Shown piece after piece: positions 2,501-46,392 of a stretch of 49,522 nt of DNA (positions within the stretch are counted from its first letter, which is position 1; every line of letters begins with the position of its first letter). The DNA comes from a virus. Taxonomy: Duplodnaviria; Caudoviricetes. The DNA is taken from the IMG/VR virus record IMGVR_UViG_3300020045_010094, positions 1-49,522 of that record. One strand, written 5' to 3'. The position numbers were made by a program, and so were the translations under genes. The notes beneath the pieces were generated by a model. That model was not told where the DNA came from. It was given only the letters and a program-made list of their open reading frames with translations, and searched no databases.

Positions 2501-2789
2501 TTTTGCTGCCCTTGGATTGGCTGCGTTTTTTCATAAAAGAATCAAGCTCGGAAACACGATAAAGATTTTTGCCCGATCGAAACCTTTTGTGCGCAGCCTT
2601 AAATGGCAATGGCTGCGGGAAGTCATCACTACGTTTCTGTATCGACCGAAGCGTGCTTTCTTTTATTTTTCGACTCTCGGCGTAATCCGAAAGAGTCCAG
2701 GCAGGGTCTTGATTTACTTTTGTGGATTTCTTGCAGCACCCAAGTGATTTGTCGTCATCGCTAATCATTTTCTTTGACCTTATTGACAT
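2490..2789 (-). CDS. putative HTH DNA-binding protein (excisionase/AlpA-like)
   Basis: Basic 99-aa protein with TLSDYAE...ESTLRS...FPQP...LYRVSELDSF pattern. Confidence 0.5.
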   Translation of the reverse strand: MSIRSKKMISDDDKSLGCCKKSTKVNQDPAWTLSDYAESRKIKESTLRSIQKRSDDFPQPLPFKAAHKRFRSGKNLYRVSELDSFMKKRSQSKGSKSEV

Positions 2790-2798
2790 TTAGGCCTA

Positions 2799-2827
2799 AG
2801 CATAATCCTATCGCAACCCTATTGCAA
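2799..2827 (-). promoter_or_regulatory. sigma70-type promoter
   Basis: TTGCAA-17 nt-TATGCT on the minus strand. Confidence 0.65.
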
Positions 2828-2832
2828 TACCC

Positions 2833-4512
2833 TTATGCGTACCTTCTCAACAAATGACCGGGGATCAGGATGCCGGCGGGGGATTCATCGGCGGGAACTG
2901 GCCAGTAAGCCATGGCTATGGCGTCGGCGAGGTTTGGTGACTTGGTGCCCTCGGGTGCCTTGTCGATCACAAGCTTTAGACTGGCACCGGTATTGGTCAT
3001 GGTCGCCTGGCTAAGCTCTTTCTTGATGGTCTGCAGCAATGGCAGATTTGAATCAAGGCTGATCAGCATATCGGGCGGGTAATAATCGCCTTCCGTGATC
3101 ATCTTGTAAGTGCGGTAAAAGCGTAAGCGCAATTCCCACCAAGCTTGGGCCTTGATGTTTTTGAAAAAATCTTTGTTGAATGGGCTTTCTTCATCGTCCG
3201 GTATCATGCGCTCGTCTGGATCAAGCACGCCGGCCGCCGCATTCCATGGAACAAACGTCATACCATCAGGCATCAGGCCTTCATCACCAAGCCTATTCGC
3301 CTCAGCCTTAACCCCGGAACCAACCCCAATGCAGTCGTATTGGAGCGCGATCTCGCCAAGCCCAGCACATTCCTGCAGCGCGTGCCTGGTTGTCACACCG
3401 GTATCACGCTCGCCCCATTGCTCAGCAGATGCCAACAAAATTCCGCGACGCTTTGCCAGTGCGTTGCGATCATTCCCACCGTCTGCAACGTCCAGCGCTG
3501 CGCCCCAAGCACCGGTAATCGGTATGCCAAGCTTGATGTGCGCATCAACAGCAGCCTCCACCCATTCGGCCGGTATGACTACGCCCAGCACGGAGGCCGA
3601 ATAGCTACGCTCGACTTCCTGCGCGAACTTATGCAGCAAGCCATCGGCCTCGGCTTTCTTTTTCCGCATATCGTACCAATCCTGGTTTTTGGCAGGATGA
3701 TCCCGCCAATCCATTACAAATACCCGAGTGCGTCCGCGCTCCATCTCGATGCCGGGCGCCCAGTCTTGGCCATTCTCACGGCGCCGATGAAATACGTTAC
3801 CCAAGCCGTTTACCGATGAGATATCGATCTGCACGTTGGTGTTATCACCCAGGGATGCTTCGATCAATTCCGCGCGCGGGTAATGCGCAGACTCGTCTTT
3901 GAAATAAATCTTTTTACGACCACCGCGCCCGATATTGTCGCCAGACTCGCCGGTAATCGTTGCGCCGTTTTCCGGGTTAATGAATTTCATGAACGTCATG
4001 TGTTCTTTTTCATTGAAGCCGGCAGGCAGGAAAAACTTTGGCAGGCGGCGCAATATCATGCGCATTTTTTCAAATATCGAATCGGCGTCACCAATGCGAT
4101 CGACCAAATCCTCTTTGCGACTACCCCATCCCACAGACGCACCAGGCATGAATAGCCACATCCAGACGCTGAATGCACAGCAAACCCAGGACGCGCCCAT
4201 ATCGCGGCATTTCTCGATTAAACCGCATTCTTGATCATCAAGGCAGGACATCAGGAAGTTAACCAAATCCTCTTGGCGCTCAAAGCATATGAGCGGAACA
4301 GAAGCGGGCACGCCGGTACCAGCTTTTCTAGGATCGTAGGTGTCTACCCAGTGGTTTATGAATTCGGCCGGCCGCGTGCGGTAGTACTCTTTTGACCCGG
4401 TAATCATCACCGGGTTATTGCGGATTTTTAGAACCTGGGCCTGCCGCCATTGCCAGGCTTCTACATAGTTTGGCGGCCAATTGGCTTTAGTTGTCGTTGA
4501 CGGTGCTGGCAT
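2833..4512 (-). CDS. terL: terminase large subunit
   Basis: 559 aa; EKCRDMGAS Walker-A-like motif, YFKDESAH Walker B, ISSVNG coupling motif, ALDVADGGND and SPNLADA RNase H-like nuclease motifs. Confidence 0.92.
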   Translation of the reverse strand: MPAPSTTTKANWPPNYVEAWQWRQAQVLKIRNNPVMITGSKEYYRTRPAEFINHWVDTYDPRKAGTGVPASVPLICFERQEDLVNFLMSCLDDQECGLIEKCRDMGASWVCCAFSVWMWLFMPGASVGWGSRKEDLVDRIGDADSIFEKMRMILRRLPKFFLPAGFNEKEHMTFMKFINPENGATITGESGDNIGRGGRKKIYFKDESAHYPRAELIEASLGDNTNVQIDISSVNGLGNVFHRRRENGQDWAPGIEMERGRTRVFVMDWRDHPAKNQDWYDMRKKKAEADGLLHKFAQEVERSYSASVLGVVIPAEWVEAAVDAHIKLGIPITGAWGAALDVADGGNDRNALAKRRGILLASAEQWGERDTGVTTRHALQECAGLGEIALQYDCIGVGSGVKAEANRLGDEGLMPDGMTFVPWNAAAGVLDPDERMIPDDEESPFNKDFFKNIKAQAWWELRLRFYRTYKMITEGDYYPPDMLISLDSNLPLLQTIKKELSQATMTNTGASLKLVIDKAPEGTKSPNLADAIAMAYWPVPADESPAGILIPGHLLRRYA

Positions 4513-5080
4513 ATGTCTCGGCTGCTTCCTGTGGCGTCATGCTTGTAGTGATTGAGGTTATTGGGGAACCGTCCTTGCCGGTTATCTCATGCTTGCTTGC
4601 AGTCTCCCACCCTTGCATTTTGGCTAGCTGTTGGATTGCCTGTAGTGGCGAATGAGTCTTGATCTTGATGCCGTCGCGGCCAGCGGACAATTCCGATATT
4701 AACGCCATCTTGGTTTTATCTTGCAAAACGGAATCTTTGATTTTCCAAGTCGCTTGTATTACTGGCTGTCCATCCTCGGTGCCTACCTCATAGGTGCCGA
4801 ATTCAACCAAGTCGGCCAGGTCGGTACGGGCAACATTCGACAATCGCTCCAGCGCCTCCTGTCGGGTCATTACGGCAGCCGACACAGCGCTCTCGTTGAG
4901 ATCTTTTAGCCTTGCGGCAATCTTGGGGTTATTAAGCACCTCGAAGGCTTCACGGTTAATGCTTTCCGGCTTCATTTCGGCGCAGTCGTATGCGGCTCTA
5001 TACGCATCGCTTGCACTTACACCCTTGAGGTATTCAAGGCAAAACTTTTCTTGCTTTGAGGTTAGTTGATTTTCACTCAC
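4487..5080 (-). CDS. terS: terminase small subunit
   Basis: LTSKQEKFCLEYL...ASDAYRAAY HTH; C-terminal HEITGKDGSPI; directly upstream of TerL; GTG start chosen at 5080. Confidence 0.9.
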   Translation of the reverse strand: MSENQLTSKQEKFCLEYLKGVSASDAYRAAYDCAEMKPESINREAFEVLNNPKIAARLKDLNESAVSAAVMTRQEALERLSNVARTDLADLVEFGTYEVGTEDGQPVIQATWKIKDSVLQDKTKMALISELSAGRDGIKIKTHSPLQAIQQLAKMQGWETASKHEITGKDGSPITSITTSMTPQEAAETYASTVNDN

Positions 5081-12335: not shown

Positions 12336-12632
12336 ATGCCAGCATTTAACCCGAAGACAAAGCCCAGTGGTTTAGTTCTTGAAGCTATAGAGGCTGAAAC
12401 CGACCGCCTGTTTAGCACCTTCTCAATCGATTTTCTGAATAAGAAAACCGGTATTTCCAAGTCAACGCTTGGAAGCCACAAGTGCCGCCAGAAACTTTCC
12501 CCGCCAGCAGTTATCGCTATCTGCAAGATTAAGGACGTTAAGTCTGAGGGCTTCACCGAGTCCGGTTTGCGCCCCGATCTTGCGGCGCCTATCAACTACT
12601 GGAAAAACGACCGCGAGCGGATGAATTACTAA
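12336..12632 (+). CDS. putative Cro/HTH-like transcriptional regulator
   Basis: LNKKTGISKSTLGSH HTH-like segment and C-terminal LRPDL typical of Cro/YdaS-like proteins; own TTGCAA element (12278) and terminator. Confidence 0.55.
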   Translation: MPAFNPKTKPSGLVLEAIEAETDRLFSTFSIDFLNKKTGISKSTLGSHKCRQKLSPPAVIAICKIKDVKSEGFTESGLRPDLAAPINYWKNDRERMNY

Positions 12633-12666
12633 GCCGCTAGTCTAAAAGCAATCGCAGATTTACACG

Positions 12667-12693
12667 CTACGGCCTTGGTGCCGTGGATTTTTT
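12667..12693 (+). terminator. intrinsic terminator
   Basis: CTACGGC-CTTGGT-GCCGTGG followed by ATTTTTT. Confidence 0.55.
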
Positions 12694-12714
12694 CGCTCTG
12701 AATTTGGTGGTGCA

Positions 12715-13347
12715 ATGAAAGAGTTTATACATGGCAATATCAAGCTGCTGAATATGGATAACATGGAATACATGCGCACGGTGCCGGATAAGTATTTTGA
12801 TATTGCTTTAGTTGACCCTCCATATGGAATAGATGTAACTAAAATGAATATGGGCGGCAGGAAAACAGTTAAAAAGGACTCATCAAAATCATGGGACTCG
12901 TGCGCTCCTACCGATGAGTATTTTTTAGAGCTTTTCAGAATATCGAAAAGGCAGGTTATATGGGGGGGGGGGAATTACTTTAAATTGCCATGCAGTCAAT
13001 ATTTTGCAATTTGGGATAAGGGCGAGACAATGTACGGAAGAGATTTTGCCGAGTGCGAGTATGCGTGGGTAAGCTCTGGTGGCACGCGAATTTATAAAAC
13101 ATCACCTAATGATCTGTTTCGCATTCACCCCACCCAAAAGCCCCGTAAGCTCTACGACTGGCTGCTGACCAATTACACCAAGCCAGACCAAAAGATATTC
13201 GATAGCCACCTTGGCAGCGGATCAAGCGCCATTGCAGCGCATTACTTTGGCTGTTCTGAGTTTGTAGGGTGCGAGCTTGATTCGGATTACTTCGATGCAT
13301 CGGTCGAGCGATTCCAGATCGAAACCGCGCAGGAGTCTTTATTTTGA
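12715..13347 (+). CDS. DNA N6/N4-methyltransferase (beta class)
   Basis: DPPY catalytic motif, HPTQKP, FDSHLGSGSS SAM-binding motif. Confidence 0.9.
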   Translation: MKEFIHGNIKLLNMDNMEYMRTVPDKYFDIALVDPPYGIDVTKMNMGGRKTVKKDSSKSWDSCAPTDEYFLELFRISKRQVIWGGGNYFKLPCSQYFAIWDKGETMYGRDFAECEYAWVSSGGTRIYKTSPNDLFRIHPTQKPRKLYDWLLTNYTKPDQKIFDSHLGSGSSAIAAHYFGCSEFVGCELDSDYFDASVERFQIETAQESLF

Positions 13348-13469
13348 CCGCAATACAGCGCAAACCCGAATGGTTCAAACCCATAGACCCCTACGAATTC
13401 CAGTGGGAAATTTTCGAGAAAACCATTAACCATATCCGCACGACTTCGGAGCCTGGGTGTGCCAAATGA
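13344..13469 (+). pseudogene. truncated original 5' end of the helicase gene (41-codon leader ORF)
   Basis: TTG start with AGGAG RBS; PEWFKPIDPYEFQWEIFEKTINHIRTTSEP matches the helicase N-terminus at 20 of 30 residues. Confidence 0.85.
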
Positions 13470-14176
13470 TGGAAATAGTCACCAGAAAATATGCATTGGA
13501 AAATGGCCTAAGCCGTTACTTTACTGGCGAGCCATGCAAAAACGGACATATCGATGAGAGAGCCGTAAATAGAAGGTCATGCATATCCTGCACAAGGGAG
13601 AGGGCGGCAAGAGAATACGAGCAAAGAAAGGATTATTTCGCGATTCACAACAAAAGCGAAAAATCAAAAGCCGCAAAGAAAAAATACGATAGCCTTGATT
13701 CATCAAAGGATAAAAAAAGAATTAGCGCAAAAAATTTATACCATAAAAATATAGAAAAATTTAGAAAAGTCGCAATGAAAAAATATAATGCGATGACTGA
13801 AGATCAGCGAAAAAATATGAGGTTAACAAGGAAAAAGAAAAGGGAGTCGTGCGAGGCAACAAGGTGCATCAATACAATGCGGTGCATGCTTCATAGATAT
13901 TTTGTTTTTACCGGCGAGAAGAAGGCAAAGAGAACAGAGGAATTGCTTGGTTATTCAGCTGCGGAACTTAAGTCGCACCTAGAAAAAATGTTTGTAGGAA
14001 AAATGTCATGGTATAACCATGGAGACCTATGGGAAATAGACCACATAATTCCAATATCTGTTTTAGTTAAAAATGGCGAAAGAGATGCATCAAAAATAAA
14101 TTGCCTGTCAAATTTAAAGCCAATATTAAAAACTGAAAATAGATCAAAACAGGACAAGGTGCTAACACTACTATGA
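13466..14176 (+). CDS. HNH (homing) endonuclease
   Basis: N-terminal YFTGEPCKNGH...CISC motif; C-terminal WEIDHIIP...INCLSNLKPI...NRSK HNH motif; markedly AT-rich. Confidence 0.85.
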   Translation: MMEIVTRKYALENGLSRYFTGEPCKNGHIDERAVNRRSCISCTRERAAREYEQRKDYFAIHNKSEKSKAAKKKYDSLDSSKDKKRISAKNLYHKNIEKFRKVAMKKYNAMTEDQRKNMRLTRKKKRESCEATRCINTMRCMLHRYFVFTGEKKAKRTEELLGYSAAELKSHLEKMFVGKMSWYNHGDLWEIDHIIPISVLVKNGERDASKINCLSNLKPILKTENRSKQDKVLTLL

Positions 14177-16074
14177 GCGTTCCATTTAACCCCGATTGGT
14201 TTTTACCAATAACCCCATACGATTTCCAAGTTGAAATCTATAAAAAAACAATTGAGCACATCAGAAACAGTTCTGAGCCTGCATATATATACGGAAGTGT
14301 TAGTTGCGGAAAAACCATAATGCAGGCGATGCTTGCCAAGCATGCGCAGGTAGTTGCTGAGATAGCAAACAAGCAACAACTTAAAATTCTTTTCATAGCC
14401 AGAACTGGCGAGCTTGTAGAGCAAAACAGCGAAGAAATGTGGGGCATGGGGGCACAAAACAGTGTTTTCTCTGCATCGCTTGGAATCAAGAGAATTGCCT
14501 ATCCGGTTATTGTTGGAAGCGAGGGAACTGTGTGCAGGTCTTTGCATACAGCCCTTAAAGATTTTGTACCGGACATCATAGCCTGGGACGAGTGTCATCA
14601 GCTGCCGATAGATAATCCAGAAAGTCAAGGGATGATTATTTTTGAAGAGTTTAAGAAAAGAAAAATAGAGCAAAACACAAAATTAAATCGCTGCCCAATT
14701 AAGCATGGCATTAGAGTAATCGGCTACACCGGCTCCCCATTCCGTGGCGTGCAACCAATCAAGGGAAAATTCTGGAAACACCAAATCTATAAAATTGATA
14801 TGTGGGAACTGGTCGGCATGGGTTTCGTTCATGCGCCCGTGTTTGGCTTTGGCGATGATGAAGACCACTTCGATTTTTCGTCAATCGAAAAACCGGTTGA
14901 GGAAGGCACCGAAGACCTGAGCAAAGACCAGCTAAAGCAAATGGAAAAAATCATACTTGCCGACAAAGAAAAAATCCACGGCATCATGAATAAAATAATC
15001 CATTCTACCAAAGATCGAAATTGCGTATTGATTACCTGCTCTGGATCGAAACACATTAAAGAGTGCGCCGCGTTTTTGCCTGAAGGCAGCTATGCGATTA
15101 TCAACGAAAAAACCGCATACAAAGAGCGTAAGGCAATTAAAGAGGGCTGCAACAACGGCACTATCAAATACGTGCTGCAAATCGGCTGCTGGACGGTTGG
15201 CGTTAATATCCCGCCCATTGACACCATTGTCATACTGCGTCGCATAGGCAGCCTTACGCTGCTTATACAGTTGATTGGGCGCGGCATTCGCAAGCTGAAA
15301 GAGTATCACCATAAGCTTGGCATGGTTAAGCATGATTGCTTGGTGCTGGATTTTAGCGACACCATGGAAACCATGGGGGAAATGTTCAACGATCCAATCT
15401 TAGAGGCTGCTCAATTCGAGAAGGCTAAGCGCGATGATATGGAGCTGAAGAAGTGCCCGCGCTGTGAATTTATGAATGGTGAGTTCGCACGGCGCTGTAT
15501 GGGTGAGGATTTTCGGCCTAAAAAAATGCCACCGTTATGGCCGCACAAACCAAAAACAATGCGCATACGCAGGTTAATCCGCAAAGAAAAAGACGGGCGC
15601 TGCGGTTTTTTCTTTACCTCCAAAAAGTGCGAGCAATGCGGTGTCGAGAATGACGCTACCGCCAGAAGCTGTAGGCATTGCGATGCCATGCTGATCGATC
15701 CCAGCCTTAACCTAAACCGAAAGGCATACTCGGAAAACGACCTGCGCGAAGTTGTGGGGCACCAGATGCAGCTTACCACCAACATGAACGGCGTGATTAT
15801 CCAGTACCAGCTTGATAACGGTGAAGTTGCGACGGAAAAATACTTTCCTGGTAGCGACAGCAAAGTAGCCAAGGATATTTTTTGGAACAACTTCATATGC
15901 AAGCACGTAACACCGGCATGGAGATCAAAGTTTTGGGGCAAGCCTGCAAAGTTTGTGATTGCGCAAAAGGCCTTGTTTGACTGGCCGGTTAAGATAACGC
16001 ATAGGGTTAATGATAAGGGTGATTCTATTATTGCTCGGAAGGTTTTTAGTAGCGGGCGCACTGAGGAAAATTAA
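14173..16074 (+). CDS. SF2 DExH-box helicase (T1-like) with C-terminal zinc fingers
   Basis: SVSCGKT, DECH, TGSP and QLIGRGIR motifs; CxxC repeats at the C-terminus. Confidence 0.9.
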   Translation: MSVPFNPDWFLPITPYDFQVEIYKKTIEHIRNSSEPAYIYGSVSCGKTIMQAMLAKHAQVVAEIANKQQLKILFIARTGELVEQNSEEMWGMGAQNSVFSASLGIKRIAYPVIVGSEGTVCRSLHTALKDFVPDIIAWDECHQLPIDNPESQGMIIFEEFKKRKIEQNTKLNRCPIKHGIRVIGYTGSPFRGVQPIKGKFWKHQIYKIDMWELVGMGFVHAPVFGFGDDEDHFDFSSIEKPVEEGTEDLSKDQLKQMEKIILADKEKIHGIMNKIIHSTKDRNCVLITCSGSKHIKECAAFLPEGSYAIINEKTAYKERKAIKEGCNNGTIKYVLQIGCWTVGVNIPPIDTIVILRRIGSLTLLIQLIGRGIRKLKEYHHKLGMVKHDCLVLDFSDTMETMGEMFNDPILEAAQFEKAKRDDMELKKCPRCEFMNGEFARRCMGEDFRPKKMPPLWPHKPKTMRIRRLIRKEKDGRCGFFFTSKKCEQCGVENDATARSCRHCDAMLIDPSLNLNRKAYSENDLREVVGHQMQLTTNMNGVIIQYQLDNGEVATEKYFPGSDSKVAKDIFWNNFICKHVTPAWRSKFWGKPAKFVIAQKALFDWPVKITHRVNDKGDSIIARKVFSSGRTEEN

Positions 16075-16671
16075 ATGGCAACAGTAAAAAAGTCGGACAA
16101 AAAGTGGAGCGAGCAATCCATCGCAAGAGCCATCTGCATGCAGATATTTAAAGGCTCTTTGATGATGGTACCTAACTGCAATTGGACTGGGAATGAGTGC
16201 GATTTATTGGTTATCGATAAAACCCTTAGGATTATTGATCTTGAAATAAAAATAAGTAGGGCTGACTTTAAGTGCGATGCTAAAAAGGATAAATGGTGGT
16301 CTCATTATGACCGCGAGATCGATGGCAATATGAAGGCATGGAATGATGCTGGCAGGCCAAGGCGTGAACGCGAATGGCCAGCAAAAGTCTGGAAGCATTA
16401 TTTTGTTATGCCAAAGGAAATTTGGGATGATTCTCTGCTTGAATTTCTGCCATCCGAGGCTTGTGGCGTGCTGCTTATTAGCGAGCACCAAGGCGAAATA
16501 CATATCCGTGTGAAGAAACCAGCAAGGCCAAATACTAAGGCCGACAAGATAGCGCCTGAAACCTGTGTTGATATCGGTCGCCTCGCTGCTTTCCGTATGT
16601 GGGAGTCATTCCGTCGCTATGACCAGCTGCTAGAAGTTAATGAGCAATTACGCTTAAATCTATTGCAATAG
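16075..16671 (+). CDS. PD-(D/E)XK nuclease-like protein (MmcB-like)
   Basis: ECDLLVI...DLEIKISRADFKCD...YFVMP...GVL pattern. Confidence 0.7.
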   Translation: MATVKKSDKKWSEQSIARAICMQIFKGSLMMVPNCNWTGNECDLLVIDKTLRIIDLEIKISRADFKCDAKKDKWWSHYDREIDGNMKAWNDAGRPRREREWPAKVWKHYFVMPKEIWDDSLLEFLPSEACGVLLISEHQGEIHIRVKKPARPNTKADKIAPETCVDIGRLAAFRMWESFRRYDQLLEVNEQLRLNLLQ

Positions 16672-44013: not shown

Positions 44014-44042
44014 TGTGGTAGTATTTTCCCCATCCTACCACA
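44014..44042. promoter_or_regulatory. face-to-face extended -10 promoter pair
   Basis: TGTGGTAGTAT (+, 44014-24) and TGTGGTAGGAT (-, 44032-42) in the 72-bp divergent gap. Confidence 0.55.
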
Positions 44043-44071
44043 CCGAAAATCATTACACCAAGGGCGCGCCC

Positions 44072-45466
44072 ATGAGCGAATTAACACCGGAAACACTCGA
44101 ACAGGTTCAGCTGCAGGTTAACAACGTATTCCTCGAAAATATCCGCGCCACGATGGCAGGGATGTCGGCTGGTTCTGATGCCAAGCGCCCGCGCGCTTGG
44201 TGCGAGTATGGATACCCCGAAGTCATTGACCAAAACATGCTCTACAACATGTATGACCGCAATGGGCTTGCCTTTGGTGCTGTCAATATCATCCACGAAA
44301 AGTGTTTTGAGACTGATCCGGTTATCTACGAAGGAGAGGAAACCGAAGATAAAGACAAACAAAAAACAGCATGGGATAAGCAGATTGCTAAGCTACTAAA
44401 AGACGGTGATTTGCTCGACTACTTCGCAGAGGCCGACCTATATCGTATGGTTAGCGGCTGGTCTGGACTGCTGATTCAATACCAGGATGGCGGCAAGTGG
44501 ACAGACCCTGTAGGCAATAAGCCAAAGGGCATTGTTAAGCTGATTCCTGCATGGGCAGTACAGCTAACACCTGGCGATATAAATACAGATGCGGACAGCG
44601 ATAACTACGGCGAGCCTCGATCATGGCAATACAATGAAGGCGACCTGCGCAACAACACAACCACGTCCGGCGCATCGGTAGCAGCCCGCCAAATCACCGT
44701 GCACCCTGATCGAATCCTTATCCTTGGCAATTGGCGCACCGGGCGCTCTGAGCTGCGCGCACCCTACAACAACTTTATCAACATCGAGAAAATCGAGGGT
44801 GGATCGGGCGAATCATTCCTGAAAAACGCCGCCCGTCAGATCGCAATGAATTTTGATAAGGATGTGAAGCTTCAGGAAATCGCCAAAGCCTACAATGTAC
44901 CTATGAGCCAATTCCAAAACATTCTGGACAAAGCTGCGCGCTCATTCAACCAAGGCATCGACAGCATTATGATGACCCAGGGGGCGGACGTAAAAGCCAT
45001 ACAGTCAACAATGCCGGACCCTGAAAAGCCCTATAACGTAAACCTTCAGTCAATCGCATCGGCCATGCGCGCACCCGCTAAAATTCTTGTTGGCATGCAG
45101 ACCGGGGAGCGTGCTAGCAGTGAGGATATCGACCAATTTAATGAGCGCTGCCAAGGTCGGCGCGTGAAGGTTATCAACAAAGACCTGCGCGGGTTTGTTC
45201 GCAAGCTGGCAGAAGCAAAAGTGATTAATCCGGTATCGGAGTTTTATATTCACTGGGACGATCTGAGCGAGTCAACGCAGTCAGAGAAGCTGGCCAATGC
45301 ACTGGTTATGTCTGATGTGAACCAGAAAAATGCGACATTTGGGGAGGTTTACACACGTGAGCAGATAATAATTGCCAGCGGTTTCGAGCCTTCACCTGAA
45401 TTGGCGCCACTACCCGAGCTGCCCGATCCTGTGGCGCCACAACCACAACCACCGGTAGCTGAATAA
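44072..45466 (+). CDS. portal protein (DUF1073-like, T1-type)
   Basis: RPRAWCEYGYP, VHPDRI, GGSGESFLKNAARQ and ILVGMQTGERASSED motifs. Confidence 0.88.
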   Translation: MSELTPETLEQVQLQVNNVFLENIRATMAGMSAGSDAKRPRAWCEYGYPEVIDQNMLYNMYDRNGLAFGAVNIIHEKCFETDPVIYEGEETEDKDKQKTAWDKQIAKLLKDGDLLDYFAEADLYRMVSGWSGLLIQYQDGGKWTDPVGNKPKGIVKLIPAWAVQLTPGDINTDADSDNYGEPRSWQYNEGDLRNNTTTSGASVAARQITVHPDRILILGNWRTGRSELRAPYNNFINIEKIEGGSGESFLKNAARQIAMNFDKDVKLQEIAKAYNVPMSQFQNILDKAARSFNQGIDSIMMTQGADVKAIQSTMPDPEKPYNVNLQSIASAMRAPAKILVGMQTGERASSEDIDQFNERCQGRRVKVINKDLRGFVRKLAEAKVINPVSEFYIHWDDLSESTQSEKLANALVMSDVNQKNATFGEVYTREQIIIASGFEPSPELAPLPELPDPVAPQPQPPVAE

Positions 45467-46392
45467 TGCCATCACCAATATTGCCATCCAGCATAGGCGA
45501 TCCAACCGGACTTGACCCTACAGAGCGCCGCGCAATAAAGGATTTTGATCGGCGCGTAAAAGCATCGGTACAGCTCTACATCGATATGCTTGGCCGTATC
45601 GAGTTTGAAAAAATCACGGTCAATAACCGGCGCCCGCTTATCAATAAAGTGCGCTACGATTTCCGCACGTCCCCCGAAGTGCTTTTAACCATGATGGAAT
45701 CAACCGGCGAGCTGGTTGACCAGATCATACTTGAGGGAGGCTCGCGCGCGCTGTGGTTTATGGAGGGCTACATCGAGCCTGTGTATCGGCGCGGCACCAG
45801 CATGTCGATGACCAATATTGCGGCCCAGTCGAAAGACTATGCAACATCACGCCCAAGCCTTGAGGCGCTGTTAACGTCAGCGCCATATCAGCGTCGCCTT
45901 GGGTTATTGCGCGCGCGTGAATTTGAGGAAATGAAAGGCCTGTCTGATGGAATTAAAAAGGATATGGCGCAAATACTCACCGATGGTATGGGGCGCGGCC
46001 TAAACCCGCGCGATATTGCCGAGAATATGACAAAGCAGATACCAATTGAGCAGGGGCGCGCCGCGCGTATTGCCAGGACTGAGGTTCCGCAAGCATTCAA
46101 GGCTGCCCGGCGCCAAGAATCGCAGCAGGCAATGAATGACTTCGGTTTTCGGATACTGATGATGCACCTGTCAGCAATGTCGCCCACAACCAGGCGTACA
46201 CACGCAGAGCGTAATGCTACATTGCACACTATTGAAGAGCAGCAGGACTGGTATGCGCAGGATGGTAATTCGATCAACTGCAAGTGCAGTGAGATAGAGA
46301 CTTTGGTGGATGAAAACGGAGAGCCGCTATCGACCGGAGCAATCGACAAGGCAAAACAGCGAAAACTTGTGTATGCGGGGATGGAAAAATAA
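45466..46392 (+). CDS. head morphogenesis protein (SPP1 gp7 / MuF-like)
   Basis: RAARIARTE, TTRRTHAER and NSINCKCS motifs. Confidence 0.88.
   Translation: MPSPILPSSIGDPTGLDPTERRAIKDFDRRVKASVQLYIDMLGRIEFEKITVNNRRPLINKVRYDFRTSPEVLLTMMESTGELVDQIILEGGSRALWFMEGYIEPVYRRGTSMSMTNIAAQSKDYATSRPSLEALLTSAPYQRRLGLLRAREFEEMKGLSDGIKKDMAQILTDGMGRGLNPRDIAENMTKQIPIEQGRAARIARTEVPQAFKAARRQESQQAMNDFGFRILMMHLSAMSPTTRRTHAERNATLHTIEEQQDWYAQDGNSINCKCSEIETLVDENGEPLSTGAIDKAKQRKLVYAGMEK

Follow-up and report, generated by a model that had tools for sequence, protein, structure and literature searches.

A probable non-splicing homing cassette at the 5′ end of a phage helicase gene

WHO elements of yeast are non-splicing and combine an endonuclease gene with a substitute for part of FBA1, an essential host gene; the nuclease is a LAGLIDADG plus zinc-finger protein related to HO, and it is the 3′ half of FBA1 that is replaced (excerpts of PMC7282813 and bioRxiv 10.64898/2026.08.13.744650). 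Mobile endonuclease ORFs with a foreign C-terminus are described in fungal mitochondria, in Allomyces atp6 and in Glomus atp6, atp9, cox2 and nad3 (excerpts of PMC3630166). T4-like phages have free-standing seg/mob endonucleases that carry out intronless homing; their genes are intergenic or interrupt a gene whose two halves are then both required as polypeptides, as with Aeh1 mobE in nrdA and T4 mobA (excerpts of PMC2988022, PMC10448857 and PMC12724721). The word stem 'duplicat' is absent from PMC2988022 and PMC12724721, and its two uses in PMC10448857 concern the nuclease genes themselves. Our literature search found no phage description of an element that replaces the start of a gene in a comparable way.

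The locus reported here lies in virus IMGVR_UViG_3300020045_010094; the window is the whole stretch of 49,522 nt that was analysed. Its plus strand carries a methyltransferase gene, a short stub, an HNH-type nuclease gene and a helicase gene in a chain, with the following features.

12715..13347, + strand: DNA methyltransferase gene upstream of the stub (Pfam N6_N4_Mtase, E 1.4e-12)
13331..13335, + strand: AGGAG, Shine-Dalgarno-like site for the stub, 8 nt before its start (sequence; conserved in L058)
13344..13457, + strand: stub, read as resident helicase codons 1-38 (N-terminus comparison; GC3 24/38)
13458..13468, + strand: 11-nt linker at the left junction (stub tail, beginning of the stub stop codon, first HNH ATG)
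13466..14176, + strand: predicted free-standing HNH-type (H-N-N) endonuclease gene, 236 aa (PHROG 1081 and 1035, invariant motif residues, structure model, dN/dS)
14156..14161, + strand: AAGGTG, Shine-Dalgarno-like site for the helicase, within the 3′ end of the HNH gene (identical in L058)
14173..14718, + strand: putative foreign helicase 5′ segment, codons 1-182, including Walker A and Walker B (fixed differences, own clade, GC3)
14449..14532, + strand: patch of resident-type residues in the foreign segment, codons 93-120 (shared residues; dN versus L058)
14719..16074, + strand: resident-type remainder of the superfamily-2 helicase, codons 183-633 (Pfam ResIII and Helicase_C; PHROG 16; identity to P0003/4/5)

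Most probably, a cassette of ~1.26 kb (13458-14718), comprising the HNH gene and foreign helicase codons 1-182, replaced the resident helicase start, left a 38-codon stub and spreads by intron-less homing, the nuclease being predicted to cut uninterrupted alleles and not its own. It is likely a selfish, non-splicing homing element. Like a WHO element, it joins a nuclease gene to a replacement host-gene part and leaves a displaced resident fragment, and the two ends of the helicase, like those of FBA1, have different phylogenies. Unlike WHO, it replaces the 5′ end, its nuclease is HNH-type rather than LAGLIDADG and the gene that it occupies encodes a phage helicase; the 182 codons replaced far outnumber the 38 of the stub, successive elements in a cluster were not observed, and cleavage and self-resistance are predictions. 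By analogy, the cassette would work like a WHO-type gene-end-replacing element while lying outside the WHO family in the strict sense. The fungal mitochondrial ORFs likewise sit between a foreign working end and a displaced native end in a hybrid gene whose foreign origin is indicated by trees, but they are organellar, 3′ and of LAGLIDADG or GIY-YIG type (PMC3630166), whereas the phage cassette is 5′ and HNH-type. The principle is therefore less new than the initial annotation implied, its 3′ mirror image having been published for yeast and fungal mitochondria. In common with seg/mob genes (PMC2988022, PMC10448857, PMC12724721), the nuclease gene is promoter-less, adjoins an essential gene for replication, overlaps its neighbours by start and stop codons and, as we propose, brings about co-conversion of the adjacent gene through a cut some distance away; the locus differs in that a complete helicase gene follows downstream and the piece upstream is redundant. 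Unlike phage inteins and in-frame insertions, through which endonuclease genes can also reside in coding regions, the cassette has no intein motifs; its insert closes the first reading frame, and the gene starts anew behind it.

As initially annotated, the stub is an ORF at 13344-13469 (41 aa) with a TTG start and an AGGAG site, both held in the last codons of the methyltransferase gene. Its ungapped match to helicase residues 7-36 was likewise reproduced: 20 of 30 residues are identical (BLOSUM62 score 119; over all six frames of the window, 200 shuffles of the stub averaged 39.7 and reached at most 57), and GAGCCTG is present in both copies at the end of the match. The stub is identical to 11 uninterrupted-type N-termini at 28-35 of 37 positions, and to four cassette-type N-termini at 20-21 of 37. 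Because these 11 related helicases open with stub-type sequence leading straight to Walker A, as predicted for empty alleles and seen here in proteins, we take the stub, on sequence comparison, to be the N-terminus of the resident helicase allele. AGGAG at 13331-13335 is likely that gene's original ribosome-binding site. A second genome (L058) has the same stub-HNH-helicase layout and break point, again with an adjoining methyltransferase gene and a matching TTGA overlap; its left-junction linker is of the same length and different in sequence. A third stub is known as protein record P0154, on three contigs, the longest of which equals in size the longest contig of HNH P0122; its tail is a third version, unlike the other two. 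The distribution is patchy: among 59 helicase loci (L004-L062), HNH and stub are each present only in L058, and the HNH family adjoins many unrelated genes. No further stub was found elsewhere in the window.

The comparison of four cassette-type with eight uninterrupted helicase alleles yielded 34 fixed differences, all within residues 1-182, and the right boundary is sharp and common to all four cassette alleles. It falls at the conserved IGYTGSP motif. Residues 183-240 of the window helicase are identical to P0003/4/5 at 57-58 of 58 positions; for residues 37-140 of the foreign segment the identity is 76-85%. GC3 is 74/182 (41%) in helicase codons 1-182 and 255/451 (57%) after them (Fisher p=3e-4, with the boundary taken from the protein comparison), a shift found in two genomes; in the HNH gene it is 87/236. 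This bears out the annotated AT-richness of the HNH gene and the first ~180 helicase codons, and together with separate trees places the proposed break at residue 182/183, very near the annotated position. Cassette-type helicases form their own clade in residues 1-182 (99/98), which is partly circular as the groups were defined from the N-terminus, and do not do so after 182. There they are interspersed among uninterrupted alleles, with four label changes needed, and a single clade of the four is rejected (p-AU 4e-48, in a test run after the tree had been seen). This scatter indicates that the cassette occurs on several backgrounds. The fixed differences, discordant trees and drop in identity agree with the earlier proposal that the working 5′ end of the helicase is, judging by sequence, a foreign allele.

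Nothing foreign would be needed if the helicase start had been duplicated in tandem at the locus and the working copy had then diverged rapidly. Such a duplication could explain why the segment is still 76-85% identical to P0003/4/5 and has a 13-residue insertion in common with some uninterrupted alleles, and it would suit our failure to find the donor phage in viral-contig scans (its position in the tree for residues 1-182 has weak support, 64/94). We nevertheless consider it very improbable, as the divergence runs 144 codons past the duplicated part before breaking off sharply, stub and working copy are close to saturated at synonymous sites (dS about 2.3; dN 0.26), and the GC3 of the segment resembles that of the HNH gene, not that of the stub.

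At the DNA level, an HNH gene next to a cassette-type helicase is known from two genomes only; P0002 is tied to HNH through equally long contigs, and P0143 is without a link to HNH. Close uninterrupted alleles are known from proteins alone: single-protein scans of viral contigs gave no close locus, a degenerate-pattern search gave 0 matches, an alignment scan of viral contigs reached at most 56% identity, and genome contigs contained no close DNA. An HNH gene could therefore still lie upstream of these alleles. A metagenome scan for helicase loci returned five, one of them close. The Walker A variant CGKT was considered as a mark of resistance; it occurs in all four cassette alleles and L003 but not in L064, and is a lead at most. 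The helicase family also has a form fractured at Walker B.

The HNH protein has an N-terminal Cys/His cluster, a long helical middle and a C-terminal nuclease motif (D-H...N...H/N), of which D192, H193, N216 and N225 are invariant in 96 of 96 aligned homologues. It matches PHROG 1035 'endonuclease VII' (E 1.7e-15). A Pfam search of the window protein gave 0 matches at E<=0.01, while 15 of 96 homologues match PF01844 weakly (best E 9e-4). In the structure model (mean pLDDT 94), strands 189-193 and 217-221 and helix 222-228 surround the motif residues; judged by motif and secondary structure, the fold may be beta-beta-alpha. A sequence search of solved structures found nothing relevant, and an Atlas neighbour (63% PF01844 at 0.88) is a lead only. 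The HNH label of the initial annotation can be kept as a prediction, based on PHROG 1035, the conserved residues, the relatives and the model. The best of 147 phage-record matches is a protein whose gene overlaps the start of a same-family helicase, and in two distant phages (L003 and L064) HNH relatives sit directly upstream of same-family helicases, without a stub.

Could the nuclease be a passenger? A one-off illegitimate recombination might have brought in the donor block, with an HNH gene that is inactive or aimed elsewhere, and ordinary homologous recombination might have moved the block since. The helicase trees for residues 183-420 and 421-633 disagree, which implies that these phages recombine freely, so that ordinary recombination could also move the cassette. 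There is also the resident-type patch inside the foreign segment: I105, I108 and A109 are common to the window and uninterrupted P0146 and have no match in the other three cassette alleles, V120 is as in all eight uninterrupted alleles and not in those three, and dN versus L058 is 0.20 in codons 93-120 compared with 0.04-0.06 on either side. This patch is likely a later conversion. Most HNH family members, moreover, are stub-free (stubs in 4 of 91 tested, two of the four being the helicase element itself). Against a passenger speak the intact HNH gene under purifying selection (dN/dS versus L058 0.114/0.869, about 0.13), its invariant motif residues, the relatives that two distant phages have at this helicase start and the single right boundary kept in all four cassette alleles, and we regard this explanation as unlikely.

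A cryptic intron or bypassed region, with the stub as a real first exon, would fit the strong ribosome-binding site of the stub and its end just before Walker A. The idea is scarcely credible: Rfam gave 0 matches at E<=1 in 12500-16500, only 11 nt separate stub and HNH and 0 separate HNH and helicase, the downstream helicase gene is complete with its own start, and RNA folds at five junction stretches are unremarkable (z between -0.7 and 1.6). Neither a ribozyme core nor frame-restoring splice boundaries of group I/II introns were found at the locus. The HNH gene is a separate ORF outside any intron or intein, with no room for an intron core.

The homing explanation can be laid out as follows. 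In a related donor phage, the HNH gene would have immediately preceded the helicase gene, as in L003 and L064, and because the relatives there are stub-free, we propose that HNH gene and donor start arrived as one unit. This refines the earlier view of element entry and 5′ repair, of which the resident stub and foreign start stand. During co-infection, homologous recombination in the conserved motif (codon 183) would have made the right junction, and a non-homologous event after codon 38 the left one. In subsequent spread, the stub and methyltransferase end would serve as left homology arm and the helicase past codon 182 as right arm; each repair would bring in the HNH gene and a resistant start, and the recipient's own start would become the new stub. 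Splicing is unneeded, since the helicase copy downstream is a full gene and has a ribosome-binding site to itself. The candidate cut site is the codon 38/39 junction, or lies in codons 39-75 or 125-182, stretches in which all cassette alleles differ from uninterrupted ones.

The stub is likely an upstream homology arm. Its alternative role, proposed in the initial annotation, is that of a translation-coupling leader, kept by selection to feed ribosomes to the HNH gene and helicase; the two are compatible. In each of the three stubs the reading frame closes within 2-3 codons of the break; for the two whose DNA is known, the stop codon overlaps the HNH ATG or precedes it by 2 nt. The HNH ATG lacks a well-spaced ribosome-binding site (GGAG lies 14 nt upstream), and stub dN/dS between window and L058 is 0.064/0.659. 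Low dN/dS is, however, also expected if stubs are re-drawn from intact alleles: three of five amino-acid differences between these stubs (positions 7, 8 and 22) are variants found among intact alleles, which a homology arm explains without selection on the peptide. The P0154 stub has Ser-to-Trp at position 35, present in none of the 11 intact alleles. The window stop arises automatically from ATGA in that frame, an alternative HNH start (GTG at 13457) sits 5 nt behind GGAG, and the helicase has its own AAGGTG, with AAGGA(A)G at the equivalent position in L003 and L064. The annotated 4-nt overlaps are present (methyltransferase/stub TTGA 13344-13347; stub/HNH ATGA 13466-13469; HNH/helicase ATGA 14173-14176) but ordinary, with nine more among the 105 listed window ORFs of >=90 aa. 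The leader role is therefore not established, and we think it doubtful. Promoter and terminator scans were at chance (4 vs 5.2; 3 vs 3.4).

The HNH family includes two more stub-plus-full-copy layouts, at a terminase 3′ end and an RlaP-like 5′ end; L106 has the 3′ layout. A second stub screen found flank similarity for 8 of 91 tested ORFs. Several candidates were rejected: L132 in the first screen reflected similarity of two neighbouring HNH-family ORFs, in L137 a nearby gene resembles the N-terminal region of the nuclease itself, and the flank similarity of L063, L096 and L132 consists of 28-32-nt DNA repeats. Tentatively, and with somewhat more doubt than belief, we suggest that phages harbour a widespread, undescribed non-splicing homing class like yeast WHO, in which one large HNH family may repair invaded genes with a resistant 5′ (helicase, RlaP-like) or 3′ (terminase) end, in some cases bringing along cargo, for example an anti-CBASS Acb3 gene. 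The stub would renew itself as homology arm at each homing event, and the helicase element would compete with a split-intein element for the 5′ region.

The case lends itself unusually well to testing: protein sequences are available for occupied as well as uninterrupted alleles, each junction is placed to within one or two codons, and two stretches remain as candidates for the cut region. If our reading is right, phages would join yeast and fungal mitochondria as carriers of the 'third class' of homing element, here acting on the 5′ end and using an HNH enzyme. Short unannotated ORFs before nuclease genes would then also be explained, and there would be a concrete source for mosaicism within the core genes of phages, a mosaicism that distorts marker-gene trees.

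The window is a complete virus record of 49,522 bases and carries direct terminal repeats; genes for portal, head, tape-measure, tail and terminase proteins place it among the tailed DNA phages. The portal and head-morphogenesis genes (44015-46392) are on the plus strand, in a structural block otherwise on the minus strand. The replication region encodes, in order, a DUF3987 protein, a DNA methyltransferase, the insert, a superfamily-2 helicase, and MmcB-like and PD-(D/E)XK proteins. The methyltransferase gene contains a run of about 12 G (12960-12972) with the frame still open, possibly a slippage tract or an assembly artefact. The features of interest are:

13344-13469: stub, a short ORF resembling the helicase start
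13466-14176 (+): HNH gene, encoding a predicted HNH-type nuclease
14173 onwards: superfamily-2 helicase gene

Every element of this locus described in the initial annotation is present in the sequence, and the feature is real. The stub begins with TTG, 8 nt 3' of AGGAG. It aligns with helicase residues 7-36, where 20 of 30 positions match (score 119, compared with a maximum of 57 in 200 shuffles). Compared as nucleotides, the copies are identical at 24/30 first, 24/30 second and 14/30 third codon positions, which indicates an old homology under protein constraint and not a recent duplication. All three 4-nt overlaps said to chain the genes exist; since nine others were counted among the window's listed ORFs, they are weakly informative by themselves.

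A homologue search returned 445 helicases, the best 22 of which were aligned, together with cluster members and short relatives. As had been predicted for empty alleles, 11 proteins have a stub-type start that runs unbroken through SEPG-YIY into Walker A (uninterrupted-type). The window stub is identical to these at 28-35 of 37 positions, but to four helicases with the foreign start (cassette-type) at only 20-21 of 37. The stub is therefore the resident helicase start, truncated after codon 38.

The helicase itself is a mosaic with a sharp boundary. Compared with the homologues P0003, P0004 and P0005, identity is 60-85% by block up to residue 140, 15/42 at residues 141-182, a region containing a 13-residue insertion absent from all three, and 57-58/58 at residues 183-240. 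The right junction falls where the conserved IGYTGSP motif begins, and from that point the DNA is near-identical to that of L058, a 6,340-base metagenome contig with the same gene order. Between the four cassette-type and eight full-length uninterrupted alleles there are 34 columns of fixed difference, all 34 within residues 1-182. The compositional break proposed from the sequence is evident in GC3, which is 74/182 codons before the boundary and 255/451 after it (p=3e-4); the values in L058 are 75/182 and 265/451, and those of the window's HNH gene and stub 87/236 and 24/38. Separate trees, calculated without the partial sequences P0144 and P0149, bear out the predicted phylogenetic break. 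Cassette-type alleles are united in residues 1-182 (99/98), a grouping that is partly circular because the alleles are defined by their start, and dispersed among uninterrupted alleles in residues 183-633, with four label changes and union in 0/200 bootstrap trees. Constraining them to a clade in 183-633 was rejected (p-AU 4e-48, tested after the tree was seen). Given this scatter past residue 182, the cassette (HNH gene plus foreign helicase codons 1-182) sits on several downstream backgrounds.

The L058 stub breaks after GAGCCTGGG, as in the window, followed by an 11-nt linker of different sequence; its HNH protein is 81% identical to the window's. The L058 contig ends (5929-6340) in tandemly repeated sequence of low complexity that probably arose during assembly. 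Among 59 helicase loci (L004-L062, several short or without upstream flank, all except L058 at most 56% identical), stub and HNH gene occur only in L058. A third stub, P0154 (40 aa), was found on three contigs, and equal contig sizes suggest that it shares one with the HNH protein P0122 (44,358 bases, the longest), as helicase P0002 would with HNH protein P0150 (10,066 bases). One locus, L040, has a helicase homologue (2786-4728) whose reading frame shifts once, near profile position 54-55, through either a sequencing error or a break in the gene. The window and L058 stubs differ at five amino acids, three of these variants also being found among intact alleles, as expected if each recipient donated its own start. 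A role for the stub as a translation coupler, as the initial annotation had it, is possible but not required, and the data are compatible both with it and with recent derivation from intact alleles.

The nuclease is intact and under purifying selection. A Pfam search gave no match to the HNH protein, which matches PHROG 1035 and PHROG 1081. Asp192, His193, Asn216 and Asn225 are invariant across 96 aligned homologues and are placed on strand, strand and helix in the predicted structure (mean pLDDT 94). The family comprises 57,857 clusters at E<=0.001, and its genes occur at many unrelated sites, some antisense, as is usual for mobile nuclease genes. The top match among 147 phage-record matches is Vibrio phage 1.076.O (L003), where an ATGA overlap joins the HNH gene to the start of a same-family helicase, without a stub. 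L064 is a second stub-free locus of this kind, and the arrangement probably represents the donor-type layout. Both loci also contain a small Cys-rich ORF, in a different frame from the HNH gene and overlapping its 5' end (L003, about 2905-3045; L064, about 2870-3020); this ORF is unannotated in Vibrio phage 1.076.O.

Stub layouts recur in the family. In a small sample (12/64 parts scanned, best 80 kept; 100 ORFs in 153 loci), 91 ORFs had enough flank for the stub test. Flank similarity was seen in eight, and two loci have true stubs beyond the window and L058:

L106, 51-2026: terminase large subunit, HNH gene, copy of the final 27 terminase codons, before a DUF4055 gene
L092, 518-3885: RlaP-like nucleotidyltransferase 5' stub, antisense HNH-family gene, Acb3 (CBASS inhibitor) gene, full-length RlaP-like copy

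The terminase-end copy in L106 (22/29 aligned columns identical) would be a 3' form of the layout, with the copy on the 3' side of the HNH gene being the displaced one. The 74-aa stub in L092 is identical to the full-length copy at 63/72 positions, and the Acb3 gene is possibly cargo.

We consider homing the likely explanation. The donor would have been a phage with an HNH gene directly upstream of its own helicase; the cassette would have entered through one homologous and one non-homologous junction, and its later spread would depend on the predicted nuclease cutting uninterrupted alleles, with repair between the stub and codon 183. The cut could not lie wholly inside codons 1-38, because occupied genomes retain stub sequence. 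Fixed differences cluster at helicase residues 1-75 and 125-182, and the window helicase has a resident-type patch at 93-120; together these make the junction/Walker A region or the Walker B region the candidate cut site. Passive movement of the cassette by ordinary recombination is the main alternative, and in our judgement an improbable one.

What looks like a split intein also interrupts this helicase family at Walker B, between DE and C (proteins P0152, P0153 and P0144; loci L048 1384-4485, L049, L051 and L056 1261-4461), at a site inside the tract replaced by the cassette. The gap in L048 holds a LAGLIDADG_2-like frame (E 8e-5). P0153 and P0144 are close relatives, each on a contig of 8,751 bases; the C-terminal intein-like segment in P0144 spans no more than about 16 aa.

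Accounts of phage free-standing nucleases describe intergenic genes with co-conversion, and others whose insertion divides a gene so that it encodes two polypeptides, both needed (PMC2988022, PMC10448857, PMC12724721). Full-text searches over main articles, mostly open-access ones, yielded no phage case of a stub, nuclease and replacement start together. The yeast WHO elements combine an endonuclease gene with a replacement 3' half of FBA1; the old half persists as a fragment, and the gene's two ends differ in phylogeny (PMC7282813; bioRxiv 10.64898/2026.08.13.744650). Fungal mitochondrial mobile ORFs are described as carrying foreign C-termini in a WHO-like manner (PMC3630166). By analogy, the window element, which is outside the WHO family, would work like the mirror image of a WHO element.
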